Positions 10,215-16,522 are shown, numbered from the stretch's first letter. The stretch: 16,522 bases of DNA from a virus (IMGVR_UViG_2548876964_000023), one strand, 5' to 3'. Made by a program: numbers and translations. The notes: a model not told the origin generated them from the letters alone.

Positions 10215-10290
10215 TCCTCTGTAGTTCAGTCGGTAGAACGGCGGACTGTTAATCCGTATGTCACTGGTTCGAGTCCAGTCAGAGGAGCCA
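10215..10290 (+). tRNA. asnT: tRNA-Asn (anticodon GUU), 76 nt
   Basis: TCCTCTGTAGTTCAGTCGGTAGAACGGCGGACTGTTAATCCGTATGTCACTGGTTCGAGTCCAGTCAGAGGAGCCA: canonical cloverleaf with GTT anticodon; matches E. coli tRNA-Asn as recalled. asnT is chosen over asnU/V/W only because of the adjacent mtfA. Confidence 0.93.
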
Positions 10291-10300
10291 ATTTAAGGGA

Positions 10301-10330
10301 AGCAGACGTTCACTGACGTCTGCTTTCTGC
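10301..10330 (+). terminator. Intrinsic terminator after asnT: 9-bp stem AGCAGACGT / ACGTCTGCT, 6-nt loop, T-rich tail
   Basis: Perfect hairpin read from the sequence, followed by TTCTGCATTTAT. Confidence 0.6.
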
Positions 10331-10405
10331 ATTTATATCAACTGGTTACTCCCTTCTTCAGGTTCACCCTCGTTCGTTAAAAATCGCTCGAACCCACACT
10401 ACTTT

Positions 10406-10452
10406 GCTGGTAAAAATGCTGGTAAAGCTGGTTCGATTTGCGTTTTACCAGC
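10406..10452. repeat. GCTGGTAAA direct repeats (10406-10414, 10418-10426, partial 10428-10434) and an inverted copy TTTACCAGC (10444-10452), just upstream of the island integrase
   Basis: Read from the sequence; candidate integrase arm-type or regulatory sites. Confidence 0.4.
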
Positions 10453-10469
10453 ACGCGGAGGGAACCGTC

Positions 10470-11744
10470 ATGTCACTTACTGATACTAAAGTAAAAAATG
10501 CCAGACCAGCGGAAAAAGCCGTCAAGCTCACTGATGGATTTGGTCTCTACCTTCTTGTGCATCCCAATGGTTCAAAATACTGGCAGTTAGGCTATCGCTT
10601 CGATGGTAAACAGAAAGTGTTTTCCATTGGTGTTTACCCTGCGGTTTCTCTTGCTGATGCCAGACAACGACGTGATGAAGCAAAAAAGCTGCTTGCTCAG
10701 GGAGTCGATCCTAACGCTAAAAAACTGGCTGATGAAAAAGCGCTGCAGGAAAAGCGGGATAAAACCTGTTCGTTCCGTGTCGTCGCCAGAAGCTGGTTTG
10801 CCACCAAAACAAAATGGTCAGAAGATTACGCCGATACGGTATGGAAGCGCCTTGAGACCTATGTATTCCCGGATATTGGCGACAGCAACGTTTCAGATCT
10901 GGATACGGGTGATCTGCTTGTTCCGATTAAAAATGCAGAAACACTCGGCTACCTTGAAATTGCCATGCGGATTAAGCAATACATCACCGCGATCCTACGT
11001 CATGCCGTCCAGCAAAAGCTTATGCGTCATAATCCGGCCTATGATATGGAAGGCGCTGTCCAGAAACCAGAGACGGAACACCGCCCTGCACTGGAGCTGG
11101 AAGAGATCCCGCTACTGCTTGAACGTATTGATGCCTACAAAGGTCGTGGACTAACTACACTGGCGATTAAACTCAATCTGTTGATTTTCATTCGTTCCAG
11201 TGAACTCCGCTATGCACGATGGTCAGAAATCGACTTCAACAGTAAGTTATGGGTAATACCAGAAAAGCGTGAAGCGATTGAGCGCGTCAAATATTCCACG
11301 CGTGGCGCAAAAATGAAACGCCAGCACTTCGTTCCCCTCTGCAGGCAGGCTCTTAAAATACTGAAAGAGATCCGCCAGCTTACCTATGAAGAAGGTAATG
11401 AGGCGGGGTTAATTTTTACGGGCTGTTATGACTCGTTCAAGCCCATGAGTGAAAACACCATCAATAAAGCGCTACGTAAGATGGGCTATGACACCACGCA
11501 GGACATCTGCGGTCATGGTTTCCGCACGCTGGCATGTAGTGCTCTGATTGAATCAGGGCTATGGTCTGAAGATGCGGTAGAACTTCAAATGAGCCACAAG
11601 GAAAGCAACAGCGTTCGTGCTGCCTATACCCATAAGGCCAAACATCTTGAGCAGCGAAGGTTGATGCTACAGTGGTGGGCAGATTATCTTGATGCAAACC
11701 GGGATGGGATGGTCAGGCCGTTTGAGTTTGCTCAGAAACAATAA
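10470..11744 (+). CDS. P4-type (IntA/CP4-57-like) tyrosine integrase with an N-terminal DUF4102-like domain
   Basis: MSLTDTKVKNARP...GFGLYLLVHPNGSKYWQLGYRFDGKQK...SLADARQRRDEA is the hallmark N-terminus of P4-like integrases; C-terminal HGFRT...Y catalytic motifs; GGAGGG 7 nt upstream; immediately downstream of a tRNA gene. The ORF track start at 10404 is rejected. Confidence 0.85.
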   Translation: MSLTDTKVKNARPAEKAVKLTDGFGLYLLVHPNGSKYWQLGYRFDGKQKVFSIGVYPAVSLADARQRRDEAKKLLAQGVDPNAKKLADEKALQEKRDKTCSFRVVARSWFATKTKWSEDYADTVWKRLETYVFPDIGDSNVSDLDTGDLLVPIKNAETLGYLEIAMRIKQYITAILRHAVQQKLMRHNPAYDMEGAVQKPETEHRPALELEEIPLLLERIDAYKGRGLTTLAIKLNLLIFIRSSELRYARWSEIDFNSKLWVIPEKREAIERVKYSTRGAKMKRQHFVPLCRQALKILKEIRQLTYEEGNEAGLIFTGCYDSFKPMSENTINKALRKMGYDTTQDICGHGFRTLACSALIESGLWSEDAVELQMSHKESNSVRAAYTHKAKHLEQRRLMLQWWADYLDANRDGMVRPFEFAQKQ

Positions 11745-11785
11745 TCGCCTTCCAGCAAGCAGACAATCGTAGTAAATAAAAAACG

Positions 11786-14039: not shown

Positions 14040-14097
14040 TGCAGCAAAAATACAAGAGGAATTTGACTGTGATGTATTAGGAATTCCTTGGAATGAA

Positions 14098-14433
14098 TTG
14101 AAATGTGGCGATAAAGTAAATCACAGAATAATAGTTAAAGCAGCAAAGGAATATAAAGAAAAATACAATATAGATATACTCAAAAACTGGTACATTTCGC
14201 AAGAATATAGTTTACCACCGCTGAAAATGACAATTTTATGTCAAAATGAGAATACAGAATGGGATTTATCTCAAAGGATCGTAGTAGGTTGTATAATCAA
14301 AACCATCATTTTTCTTTCAACGGTCTCACTGTTATTTTATGGTATATATAATGGAGTAAAACTAAGTGATTTCCTATTTTATATAGTCTTTCTTTTACCA
14401 CTTATAAGACATATATATAACATTAAAGGATAA
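14098..14433 (+). CDS. Second TM-containing ORF (TTG start at 14098 or ATG at 14227; frame is open from 14029), probably the middle segment of the same effector
   Basis: Hydrophobic segments IVVGCIIKTIIFLSTVSLLFYGIY and FLFYIVFLLPLI; no ATG or Shine-Dalgarno near the beginning of the open frame. Confidence 0.45.
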   Translation: MKCGDKVNHRIIVKAAKEYKEKYNIDILKNWYISQEYSLPPLKMTILCQNENTEWDLSQRIVVGCIIKTIIFLSTVSLLFYGIYNGVKLSDFLFYIVFLLPLIRHIYNIKG

Positions 14434-14683
14434 TAAAGATACTATACAAAGAATAACTCGGCTTAATGCGTTTATATGCAAAAATATAAATTCTTTAGAT
14501 GAAGTAAAAAACGTAAGCGATGAAAACTTAAGATATGTTATTAGAACCATACAAGATGAAATATTTTTACACCGCTGCAGTGGTACACCTGTTCCTGACT
14601 TAATACATATGCTTTTAAAAAAAAGAAATGAATATATAAATAAGAAACAATTAGATTATTTTTTCAAAAAAATGTCAAATTAA
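14408..14683 (+). pseudogene. Start-less 92-codon open frame encoding a soluble-looking domain, ending 3 nt before the operon terminator; likely the frameshifted C-terminal part of the effector
   Basis: Third frame is open from the stop at 14405-14407 to TAA at 14681-14683 with no ATG/GTG/TTG until near its end. In roughly 70 percent AT DNA (eye estimate) a 92-codon open frame is unlikely by chance. Confidence 0.45.
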
Positions 14684-14708
14684 AGAAAGGGCCACATGGC
14701 CCTTTTAC
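14684..14708. terminator. Bidirectional intrinsic terminator: stem AAGGGCC / GGCCCTT, loop ACAT, T-tract on the plus strand and a matching run of T on the minus strand
   Basis: Perfect hairpin between the convergent CBASS-like operon and the minus-strand adhesin-like gene. Confidence 0.6.
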
Positions 14709-14793
14709 ATCCTCTATAGAGGAACTATCTATAGGATAGAATACTCCTTTAATCTCGCCATACTTGTCAAATATTAATTTTCAGTAAGTAGCA

Positions 14794-16093
14794 TTACCTA
14801 CATGCATATAACCTTCTGAAATTACTATAACAATGTGTATTCCTACCACCACTACAACGCTCCTCATTATATTCTGCAATAAGGGTTCCAGATATATAAC
14901 CAAACTGAGGACTATACGTTGATCCCGGACAGGCACATGTTCCAGTATCACTATTCGGTATAACGCATTTATAACCAGAGATTTGATCTGTTATCGTTAT
15001 AAAAATACCTTTCAGGCCATCACCACTTGCTGTCTGCCATTTACCGTTAACACACGATAACACTCGACCTGTACTGTCTCGCCCCACCAGACCATTAGGC
15101 GTACATTTCGCATTTAATGTTGCCTGAACATTCAAATGGAGATATTCACCTGCTTTGATCCTGCCTGTTGATTCAATTGTCCCGTTAGATATTATCGTGC
15201 CTGCGGTAAGATTACCTGAAGCATAAATATTACCTGCATTGTTCATGTAAACTTTAACTGTTTTCCCGGTTCCTACACCAACAGTCCCTGACGCATACAA
15301 ATCATAGGTGCGAACACCGCCAGCCCAGCCAGCAGGCAAATCGTTTGGATTAAGTCCGTTCGTCGCGATACGACTACCAAACTTCGCCAGACCTGTTGTT
15401 GATAGCGTATTAAGATAGGTATCAGATTTTACTTTCAGGTTGTTGTTGATATTTACAGGACCATTAAGGGTTGAGGTTCCTCCCACAGTCAGAGCTGATG
15501 TAACAGACGCATTACCCGTTGTCTTAAGTGCGCCGGTTGTTGTTGTCCCTGATGCCGTAATGTCTTTGATGTTTTTGATACTCTTCCCACCAAGATTCAG
15601 ATCATCCGTCATCGGCAACGTTCCATCACGGCGCAGATAAACAGAATACATTGAAGAGTTATACCCCACGCGGTAAGCCAGCAATCCACCACCCGTGATA
15701 TTGCTGTAGCTATTAGAGTTCTCACTCCACTGACCACCATAGCCGGACGCTATCTTGGTGTTTCTGCTCATCCCACCATCAACACCAGCCGCCTGAACCG
15801 CTTTACCTAACAGGTCATAACGAATACGACCACCTTCTTCCCACGGGCTGGCGGTTGTTATAAGACCATTGATGACATAATCAGGTGCTGTTCCTGAACG
15901 CTTTAACACAATCTTGTAGGATGCTTTTTGCGCGTTAGTTCCTGTATAGCCGACAGGCAACAGACCTTCATTAATTAACGTCTGGTAAGTGATTTCACAA
16001 CCAGCAGCCGAACATGTTCTTGGCCCCGGATCGCTACTTTGATTGTTGGATGATGACAGTGTGGAAATTTTGTCATAGCGAATACTGATATAG
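14794..16093 (-). pseudogene. Gly/Thr/Asn/Ser-rich beta-type adhesin, pilus-tip (PilV-like) or tail-fibre-like protein, 5'-truncated by an IS insertion
   Basis: Long open frame (433 native codons); its first roughly 26 codons (16094-16170) are IS-derived read-through. Repetitive G/T/S/N-rich segments and a Cys-rich C-terminus; no native start codon. Functional class is a guess from composition. Confidence 0.5.
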
Positions 16094-16522
16094 TGAACCG
16101 CCCCGGGTTTCCTGGAGAGTGTTTTATCTGTGAACTCAGGCTGCCAGATCATCGTTTCCGATGGAAGCATAATAAGCTTTTTCTGCTTCTGCCGGAGGAG
16201 TATGGCCCAGCCTTCCCAGCAATCGTCGATTGTTATACCAGTCCACCCACGTTAGTGTGGCCAGTTCCACTTCTGCACGGTTTTTCCAGCTCTTACGGTG
16301 TATTACCTCCGCTTTGTAAAGACCATTGATGCTCTCAGCCATCGCGTTGTCATACGAGTCGCCTGTACTCCCTGTTGATGCCAGTAATCCGGCTTCTTTT
16401 AGTCGCTCCGTATAGGCCAGTGACACATACTGAGAGCCTTTATCGCTGTGATGGATGGTGCCAGACGGACGACGGGCCCACAACGCCTGCTCCAGCCGCA
16501 TCCAGCACGAATGTCGTTTCCA
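16094..16522 (-). mobile_element. IS3-family insertion sequence (IS629/IS1203-like end), partial; terminal repeat begins TGAACCGCCCCGGG at 16094 and the element runs off the window
   Basis: Terminal sequence TGAACCGCCCCGGGTTTCCTGGAGA plus the transposase OrfB C-terminus encoded just inside. The specific IS name is from memory of the terminal repeat. Confidence 0.75.
16136..16522 (-). CDS. IS3-family transposase OrfB (integrase-core DDE domain), C-terminal part; the ORF continues past the window end
   Basis: ...[11 protein letters not shown]...[21 protein letters not shown]...[21 protein letters not shown]... is the typical C-terminal region of an IS3-family DDE transposase; frame is open to the window edge. 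Confidence 0.8.

Follow-up and report, generated by a model that had tools for sequence, protein, structure and literature searches.

What is the DNA that follows the tRNA gene asnT in the 16,522-nucleotide stretch IMGVR_UViG_2548876964_000023, and does any of it still work? A preliminary description of this stretch (the window, meaning its whole length) had read positions 10215-16522 as a tRNA-targeted island carrying a P4-like integrase, a small low-complexity gene, a cassette resembling a cyclic oligonucleotide-based antiphage signalling system (CBASS), a truncated adhesin- or tail-fibre-like gene and an insertion sequence (IS). We are confident that an integrative mobilizable element (IME) has left a 10.8-kb remnant here, decayed and immobilised and with a broken CBASS, in the O111 lineage of enterohaemorrhagic Escherichia coli (EHEC), and that the DNA from 10295 to the window end makes up the left 6.2 kb of this remnant. 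The features named before, asnT and a terminator included, are all present at or near the places assigned to them. Positions, strand and identity are as follows.

9134-9223, minus strand: tRNA-Ser(CGA) gene serU (ARAGORN, Rfam agrees)
10215-10290, plus strand: asnT, tRNA-Asn(GTT), the presumed integration target (ARAGORN; Rfam tRNA, 72.6 bits)
10275-10291, plus strand: attL core CCAGTCAGAGGAGCCAA, 16 nt of the tRNA 3′ end and 1 nt beyond
10295-10469, plus strand: left end of the island DNA, a stretch kept in the ECOR29 and F070 islands
10470-11744, plus strand: P4-type tyrosine integrase (int), 424 aa, apparently intact (Pfam PF13356 Arm-DNA-bind_3, PF22022 Phage_int_M, PF00589 Phage_integrase)
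11786-11806: GC-rich hairpin, bidirectional and terminator-like, between the convergent int and 83-aa genes
11814-12065, minus strand: 83-aa protein, Ala/Ser/Thr-rich and internally repeated (two stretches matched by phrog_5079, function unknown)
12241-14792, plus strand: CBASS cargo module in a variable slot, 30% G+C (homology to F070 ends at 12240; all relatives resume at 14792/14793)
12768-13763, plus strand: CD-NTase, the oligonucleotide cyclase of CBASS, 331 aa, intact open reading frame (ORF) (Pfam SMODS; PADLOC)
13767-14683, plus strand: S-4TM (4TM) effector pseudogene in three frames (S_4TM ORFs 13767-14039, 14050-14433 and 14411-14683)
14686-14705: hairpin AAAGGGCCATGTGGCCCTTT between the convergent effector and pilV genes
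14794-16093, minus strand: pilV′, 5′-truncated gene of a type IV (thin) pilus tip adhesin (Pfam Shufflon_N PF04917, E 9e-14)
16094-16522 and past the window, minus strand: left 429 bp of a 1310-bp copy of IS1203, IS3 family (rve, rve_2, rve_3; RefSeq IS1203-family transposase)

The gene mtfA (Peptidase_M90) lies between the genes for tRNA-Ser(CGA) and tRNA-Asn(GTT), and the segment is the serU-mtfA-asnT region of E. coli. More than 20 complete chromosomes of E. coli O111:H8, O111:H- and O111:NM match positions 9100-16522 with 100% identity; as these include annotated O111:H8 chromosomes, chance ORF noise can be dismissed for the region 10215-16522. Homology to K-12 stops at 10294, four nucleotides past asnT, and restarts only 10.8 kb downstream within the yeeL pseudogene, which places the far boundary beyond the window, as had been proposed. 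In total 7.9 kb of K-12 DNA (yeeJ and part of yeeL) are replaced in the O111 locus. Two details of the earlier description do not hold. Housekeeping genes had been expected directly after asnT in the reference backbone, whereas K-12 has the adhesin gene yeeJ there. The strong hairpin 3′ of the tRNA (10297-10328, 14-bp stem, T-rich tail) had been taken for the terminator of asnT, but belongs to the island DNA because K-12 homology ends at 10294.

The G+C content of the cargo is 27-30% (30% in the slot) compared to 44-53% in the flanks. DNA of the CBASS (12100-14790) was found in 43 of 5426 complete E. coli genomes, in copies at least 99% identical to each other, and all carriers with a serotype label are O111. 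The integrase region is matched in 318 genomes, 141 of them with at least 80% query coverage and mostly 94-96% identity in the rows inspected. The locus thus combines several features of tRNA-integrated islands: an integrase directly 3′ of the tRNA gene, a backbone that breaks off at the tRNA 3′ end, an atypical base composition and a patchy occurrence among strains. Jointly with the 17-bp repeats in the relatives described below, the break 4 nt past asnT, the low G+C content and the presence in so few genomes bear out the proposal of an acquired, tRNA-targeted island. Comparison with other strains agrees: the gene order is not universal at asnT and the intact relatives have flanking repeats, which argues against ancestral DNA. 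An Rfam scan of the island gave nothing beyond the tRNA.

The relatives reveal from what kind of element the O111 remnant derives. At asnT or asnV of strains F070, A31, SCU-106, KFu019, P393-F10 and CUVET16-321 a common backbone is present, in the order int, a variable segment, pilV, a PilS-type pilin gene (annotated bfpA), and genes for a TraD-like protein and a MobQ/MobA-MobL relaxase. After the relaxase follow a short variable segment and genes for a small protein, a lipoprotein, DUF4755, RepL, DUF4756, H-NS-like proteins, a helix-turn-helix protein and DUF6387. Domain searches confirmed the relaxase, TraD and PilS domains. In blastn comparisons of O111 with ECOR29/F070 the identity was 96% for int, 93% for pilV, 91% for mobQ and 94% for the block of small-protein and lipoprotein genes, and the integrases of the intact islands are 94-96% nucleotide-identical to that of the window. 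The intact relatives encode a 493-aa MobA/MobL relaxase (E 2.5e-53) and a TraD-like protein, with no annotated type IV secretion system; neither secretion-system nor coupling-protein genes are annotated in the 22-kb ECOR29 island, which fits an IME rather than an integrative and conjugative element (ICE) or a P4 satellite. Judged by these genes, the family would consist of IMEs of about 22 kb which insert at asn tRNA genes.

The attachment sites are consistent with this. The 17-mer CCAGTCAGAGGAGCCAA stands at both ends of the intact ECOR29 island at asnV, in perfect copies 22.4 kb apart, and is the direct repeat reported as 17-bp core for the asn-tDNA islands of Klebsiella (PMC4891358). The preliminary description had predicted a direct repeat of the 3′ part of asnT beyond the window. 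This applies to the ECOR29 relative and not to the O111 copy: within 47 kb of the O111 locus no 17- or 23-nt copy of the asnT 3′ end (up to 3 mismatches) was found except in the four asn tRNA genes, and a general direct-repeat scan of the locus returned chance-level pairs only. The attR site is absent in O111 because the right end was deleted along with yeeJ and part of yeeL.

Based on the gene content, the following life cycle can be proposed for the intact element. The P4-type integrase would recombine it into any asn tRNA gene, at the 17-bp 3′ end, and restore the tRNA. After excision, the MobQ relaxase and the TraD-like accessory protein would presumably nick an origin of transfer (oriT), and the conjugation machinery of a helper would carry the element to a new cell. 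RepL, the H-NS-like proteins and the pilin-adhesin pair PilS/PilV would complete the backbone, and exchangeable anti-phage cargo would be held in the slot between the 3′ ends of int and pilV.

The O111 copy has lost much of this equipment. Its pilV′ gene lacks about 54 N-terminal codons (prepilin leader and hydrophobic helix); the encoded protein is 94% identical to residues 55-487 of the intact 487-aa PilV of ECOR29, the first 25 codons of the ORF come from the IS end, and DNA homology stops at 16093. RefSeq likewise annotates it as a pseudogene with missing N-terminus. The adhesin- or tail-fibre-like gene of the preliminary description is a truncated adhesin gene as stated there, and its identity can be refined to the type IV pilus tip adhesin gene pilV of a mobilizable backbone. 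No island of the family has an annotated rci recombinase gene or annotated shufflon segments. The terminal repeat TGAACCGCCCCGG is found at both ends of IS1203, 1310 bp apart, and no 3-bp target-site duplication is present, which is consistent with an IS-associated deletion. Compared with ECOR29, 2.39 kb of backbone are missing where the IS stands: pilV has lost its 5′ end, the pilin gene and traD are absent along with the intergenic region between traD and mobQ, and mobQ of O111 lacks its first ~270 nt (kept from about codon 91 onward). Family homology ends ~300 bp past the lipoprotein gene and is followed by 87 unmatched nucleotides and then by the chromosome inside yeeL. Thus the right ~12 kb of the element are gone together with attR, yeeJ and part of yeeL. 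Without attR the O111 copy would be unable to excise normally, and with a truncated relaxase and the likely oriT region deleted it would not be mobilisable.

Several further observations concern erosion at this locus. In the O111 strains 2009C-3675, UTAK-13, 95NR1 and 95JB1 an extra IS1203 copy has inserted in the region of int and the 83-aa gene, and break-up of the remnant is continuing in the O111 clone. In strain KFu021 an island of the same family was eroded further and independently, where an IS3 element cuts the integrase and a deletion reaches the middle of shiA (locus L026, 7171-10018). IS-mediated deletions into yeeJ-shiA seem to be recurrent at the locus. Just beyond the O111 island, shiA and yeeO are annotated as frameshifted pseudogenes (locus L001 of O111, 33117-34405 and 37648-39136), which adds to the picture of local gene decay.

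The cargo of the O111 copy is a CBASS. The cyclase aligns over positions 1-331 of the 332 of PADLOC model PDLC00802 (E 2.8e-149); NCBIfam equivalog models match as well, but under their cut-offs. Its active-site motif GS...DIDI (GS...DxD) in FGSFARRTKIRPLDDIDI aligns with TGSYARYTKTKPLKDIDI of CdnC 6p8u, and similarity to the solved CdnC/CdnD structures is only weak. Although the cyclase family is common in Enterobacterales (2276 matches at E ≤1e-40), the nearest cyclases outside E. coli, from Rahnella, Serratia and Yersinia ruckeri, are 60-61% identical in a search of 5.8 billion proteins, in which no homologue lay between 61% and 100%; among species-representative genomes the identity is at most 59%. 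The cyclase is an orphan lineage, and the donor of the 27-30% G+C module is probably unsampled.

The effector gene starts 4 nt after the cyclase stop codon. In intact homologous operons of other bacteria a single effector ORF of 305-311 aa follows the cyclase directly, whereas in O111 three ORFs correspond to positions 1-90, 95-218 and 217-305 of one 306-position 4TM model (PADLOC PDLC00717). A tblastn comparison with intact effectors of 311 and 305 aa revealed two frame switches, the first in an A7 run (14030-14036) and the second in or near an (AT)n tract (~14410-14420). Each lesion falls in a simple-sequence tract, and the frame is shifted in the same direction by both. RefSeq annotates the three fragments in all genomes listed (40 of the 43 carriers). 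Accessory genes (Cap2/Cap3, HORMA/TRIP13) were not detected, nor were other family-matched ORFs in 12066-14793. By its architecture the cassette is classified as a minimal two-gene type I CBASS with a 4TM effector. In the complete system, phage infection would trigger synthesis of a cyclic oligonucleotide by the CD-NTase, which would activate the four-helix membrane effector and lead to cell death (abortive infection). A two-gene CdnD-4TM type I CBASS of E. coli restricts phages at least 10,000-fold (bioRxiv 10.1101/2023.05.21.541620). With its effector split into three frames, the O111 system would not kill infected cells; the effector is probably inactivated, and the CBASS most likely does not defend its host.

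The decay of the O111 copy would accordingly comprise two frameshifts in the effector gene, the replacement of backbone by IS1203, and a deletion that took the right ~12 kb together with yeeJ and part of yeeL. Some points weigh against this reconstruction. The 87 nt at the right junction (L001, 31924-32010) match none of the compared loci, and the history of the right-end deletion is incomplete. Integrase and cyclase are still intact ORFs, and residual activity is possible. A near-identical CBASS with an intact effector is absent from the databases searched, so that a profile and distant homologues had to serve as reference for the lesions, and from these the exact indels and the ancestral sequence of the effector are inferred. 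Mobilisation is deduced from genes, with no helper known and no oriT identified (no search for one was made). Finally, PilV is ~26% identical to PilV of IncI2-type plasmids over most of its length and ~48% identical over 75 aa to other plasmid PilV proteins, whose incompatibility types were not checked.

A plasmid origin of pilV and mobQ was also considered and rejected, since the best true plasmid PilV is ~26% identical. The sole plasmid match at 95% is a 393-kb record labelled as plasmid, which probably carries the island.

Could the island be functional and mobile after all, with an integrase that excises it and a CBASS that protects O111 from phages? The integrase (424 aa) and cyclase (331 aa) ORFs are intact including their catalytic motifs, and the identity of the locus across 43 genomes might be read as conservation. 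Nevertheless we consider this very unlikely. To the right there is no attR copy of the 17- or 23-nt asnT 3′ end, the effector is in three frames, the relaxase gene is 5′-truncated and the traD-mobQ intergenic region is gone; moreover, identity among 43 genomes is what one recent clone would show and is uninformative on selection.

A similarly slim chance is given to the idea that the effector fragments still yield a working protein, by slippage at the A7 or (AT)n tracts or as split subunits, which would make the CBASS phase-variable. The location of both lesions in simple-sequence tracts and their common direction would suit such a switch, and slippage on homopolymers is able to put a minority of transcripts back in frame. 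But two independent corrections would be required in one molecule, A7 is short for efficient slippage of RNA polymerase, and the three-fragment state is the same in all 40 listed genomes, with no sign of switching. A decayed IME with a broken CBASS is the reading retained for what follows.

The integrase is 50% identical to Int of phage P4 over 98% of its length (E 6e-131), and the label P4-type is thereby a tested one. The catalytic residues R, HxxR and Y align with those of the integrase of the Yersinia high-pathogenicity island (HPI) as IRSSELR, HGFR and AAYTH, as far as a reading of the sequence goes. The adjoining 83-aa protein has no match in Pfam, PADLOC or NCBIfam; its gene is found next to int in F070 and 1604D011 and is absent from ECOR29-type islands. 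An AT-rich spacer of 700 bp separates it from the cyclase gene. Given such an integrase, the locus might be seen as the remnant of a P4-like phage satellite, all the more as P4-like satellites occupy tRNA hotspots with defence cargo (PMC10121019). This is less probable still. The intact relatives encode a MobQ relaxase, a TraD-like protein, RepL and PilS/PilV; as annotated by RefSeq, neither the O111 nor the ECOR29 island contains primase alpha, sid, psu, delta or cos; and in this part of the window only the integrase, the 83-aa protein and PilV (the last with a fibre-like entry) have PHROG matches.

Least credible is a degenerate HPI or ICEEc1-type element, since, although the HPI sits at asnT in many E. 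coli (PMC10562709) and has target site and 17-bp core in common with the remnant, its integrase is only 49% identical, the O111 island annotation holds no ybt/irp genes, and F070 carries the element and a complete HPI in tandem, each with its own integrase, hence as distinct elements.

In F070 (locus L005, 13249-36342) the IME at asnT is directly followed by the complete yersiniabactin HPI, whose integrase is 49% identical to that of the IME; two different integrases use the same 17-bp site in this strain. The locus is rearranged in strain 1604D011: int and the 83-aa gene are found at asnT, next come a gene for a nucleoid-associated protein and the tail module of a P2-like prophage, and the right-hand module of the IME (RepL to DUF6387) lies on the other side of serU.

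If the O111 remnant belongs to a family of IMEs, the segment between int and pilV is where its members differ. The left edge of this slot lies where homology breaks, which is either the int stop codon or a point just behind it or, for the F070 subtype, 175 bp beyond the 83-aa gene; on the right, homology returns 1-2 nt beyond the pilV stop codon. The contents of the slot in the compared strains were as follows.

O111: CBASS type I
KFu019: Lamassu LmuA and LmuB (E 1e-137 and 5e-224)
SCU-106: NsnA-like DUF262 protein and HEPN, an integrase pseudogene, and an LmuA/HamA-like nuclease
EC09 (int subtype of 80% identity): an unknown protein and a type III restriction-modification system
ECOR29 and P393-F10 (as two ORFs in A31): 583-aa protein (L003, 8309-10060; L007, 10742-12493; L024, 8742-10493)
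F070: MvdD-like ATP-grasp protein and two unknown proteins
CUVET16-321: two unknown proteins

The slot is a hotspot of defence cargo inside a mobile element, a familiar pattern. No convincing repeats flank it, and therefore a cassette- or integron-like capture of cargo was rejected; exchange probably occurs by homologous recombination in int and pilV. The 583-aa protein has no match in Pfam, PADLOC or PHROGs; since its gene occupies a defence slot, it is a candidate for a defence function not yet characterised. Together with the ATP-grasp trio of F070 and the pair of CUVET16-321, it makes up the slot genes without known family, which are candidate new anti-phage systems. A second variable segment is present after mobQ (L001, 29399-30807) and encodes a 380-aa protein in O111, without match in Pfam, PADLOC or PHROG, and a 156-aa protein on the opposite strand in ECOR29; this segment may be a second cargo position.

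The element encodes a PilS-like major pilin and a PilV tip adhesin but no pilus assembly genes, which suggests that the type IV mating pilus of a helper plasmid is re-dressed in order to steer transfer. A precedent is SGI1, which remodels the mating apparatus of its IncC helper. We put forward only tentatively, and as rather doubtful, that the asn-tRNA islands are an undescribed IME family combining a fixed defence slot of partly new systems with an orphan pilin and adhesin which re-dress the mating pilus of the helper. In the literature searched, no description of an island family with pilV, pilS and MobQ or of its slot was found, and the observations at the family level are mildly new and largely lie outside the window.

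The other tRNA site next to mtfA is occupied too. A defective lambdoid prophage lies at serU (~1-9081; L001, 12928-19982), with a YdaT-type toxin gene, dicB, DUF1391/DUF1482 genes and, at 5992-6043, the DicF antisense RNA (Rfam, 75 bits). Its 624-aa ORF (7207-9081) is a deletion fusion of an exonuclease gene without its C-terminus and an integrase gene without its N-terminus, so that no excisionase region is left; exonuclease and integrase of strain A31 are arranged without the deletion. With this deletion and the decay of the island, immobilised elements occupy both tRNA sites flanking mtfA. The first ~2 kb (1-2025) cannot be aligned to the prophage segment of strain 05-3004, while the rest is 99.9% identical; the replication-region module of the prophage differs between O111 strains.

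The finding itself is ordinary, a decayed defence island at a known hotspot assembled from known types of parts. The O111 EHEC clone carries a fossil defence island, which is of very little significance for the window as such. Since the effector is broken, the defences of the strain would be overestimated by an automated annotation that lists a CBASS at this locus. Set against its intact relatives, the fossil reveals a compact mobilizable element of ~22 kb which uses the attachment site of the HPI and can stack in tandem with it. New defence genes could be sought at little cost in the slot between int and pilV, and the orphan pilin/adhesin pair raises the idea that hitch-hiking elements influence the choice of mating partners. 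Recurrent IS-mediated erosion removes chromosomal neighbours (yeeJ, yeeL and up to shiA), which may matter for the adhesin repertoires of EHEC.

The chromosomal site is known. In S1 Table of Hochhauser et al. 2023 (PMC10121019) the tRNA-Asn site yeeJ-mtfA is defence hotspot #16 of E. coli, occupied in 393 of 897 genomes, and the paper reports IMEs, satellites and prophages with defence systems at tRNA hotspots. In the accessible parts of this source and its supplement, no O111 entry was found and the pilV/mobQ backbone and the int-pilV slot are not described. The asn-tDNA islands of Klebsiella pneumoniae (GIE492, ICEKp1 and 10 other groups; Marcoleta et al. 2016, PMC4891358) are comparable in using four clustered asn tRNA genes as hotspots, and have the 17-bp core, related integrases, tandem accretion and IS-driven decay in common with the elements described here; the IME-HPI tandem of F070 mirrors the composite islands of Klebsiella. 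They differ by microcin and yersiniabactin cargo and an ICEKp1-like oriT, compared to anti-phage cargo and a MobQ relaxase module. Similarly, the Yersinia HPI at asnT shares the P4-type integrase, attB and locus, and differs in the 49% identity of the integrase, the siderophore genes and the backbone. As to the cargo, the EcCdnD12-4TM type I CBASS (bioRxiv 10.1101/2023.05.21.541620) is an operon of CD-NTase and S-4TM without accessories as in O111 and is experimentally protective, whereas the O111 effector is frameshifted twice and its cyclase is at most 61% identical to anything outside E. coli. A fixed slot with varying defence systems in near-identical elements is also known from P2/P4 hotspots and from the cargo regions of ICEs and IMEs; here, in contrast, no repeats mark the slot, and its host is a MobQ-type IME with pilin and adhesin genes.

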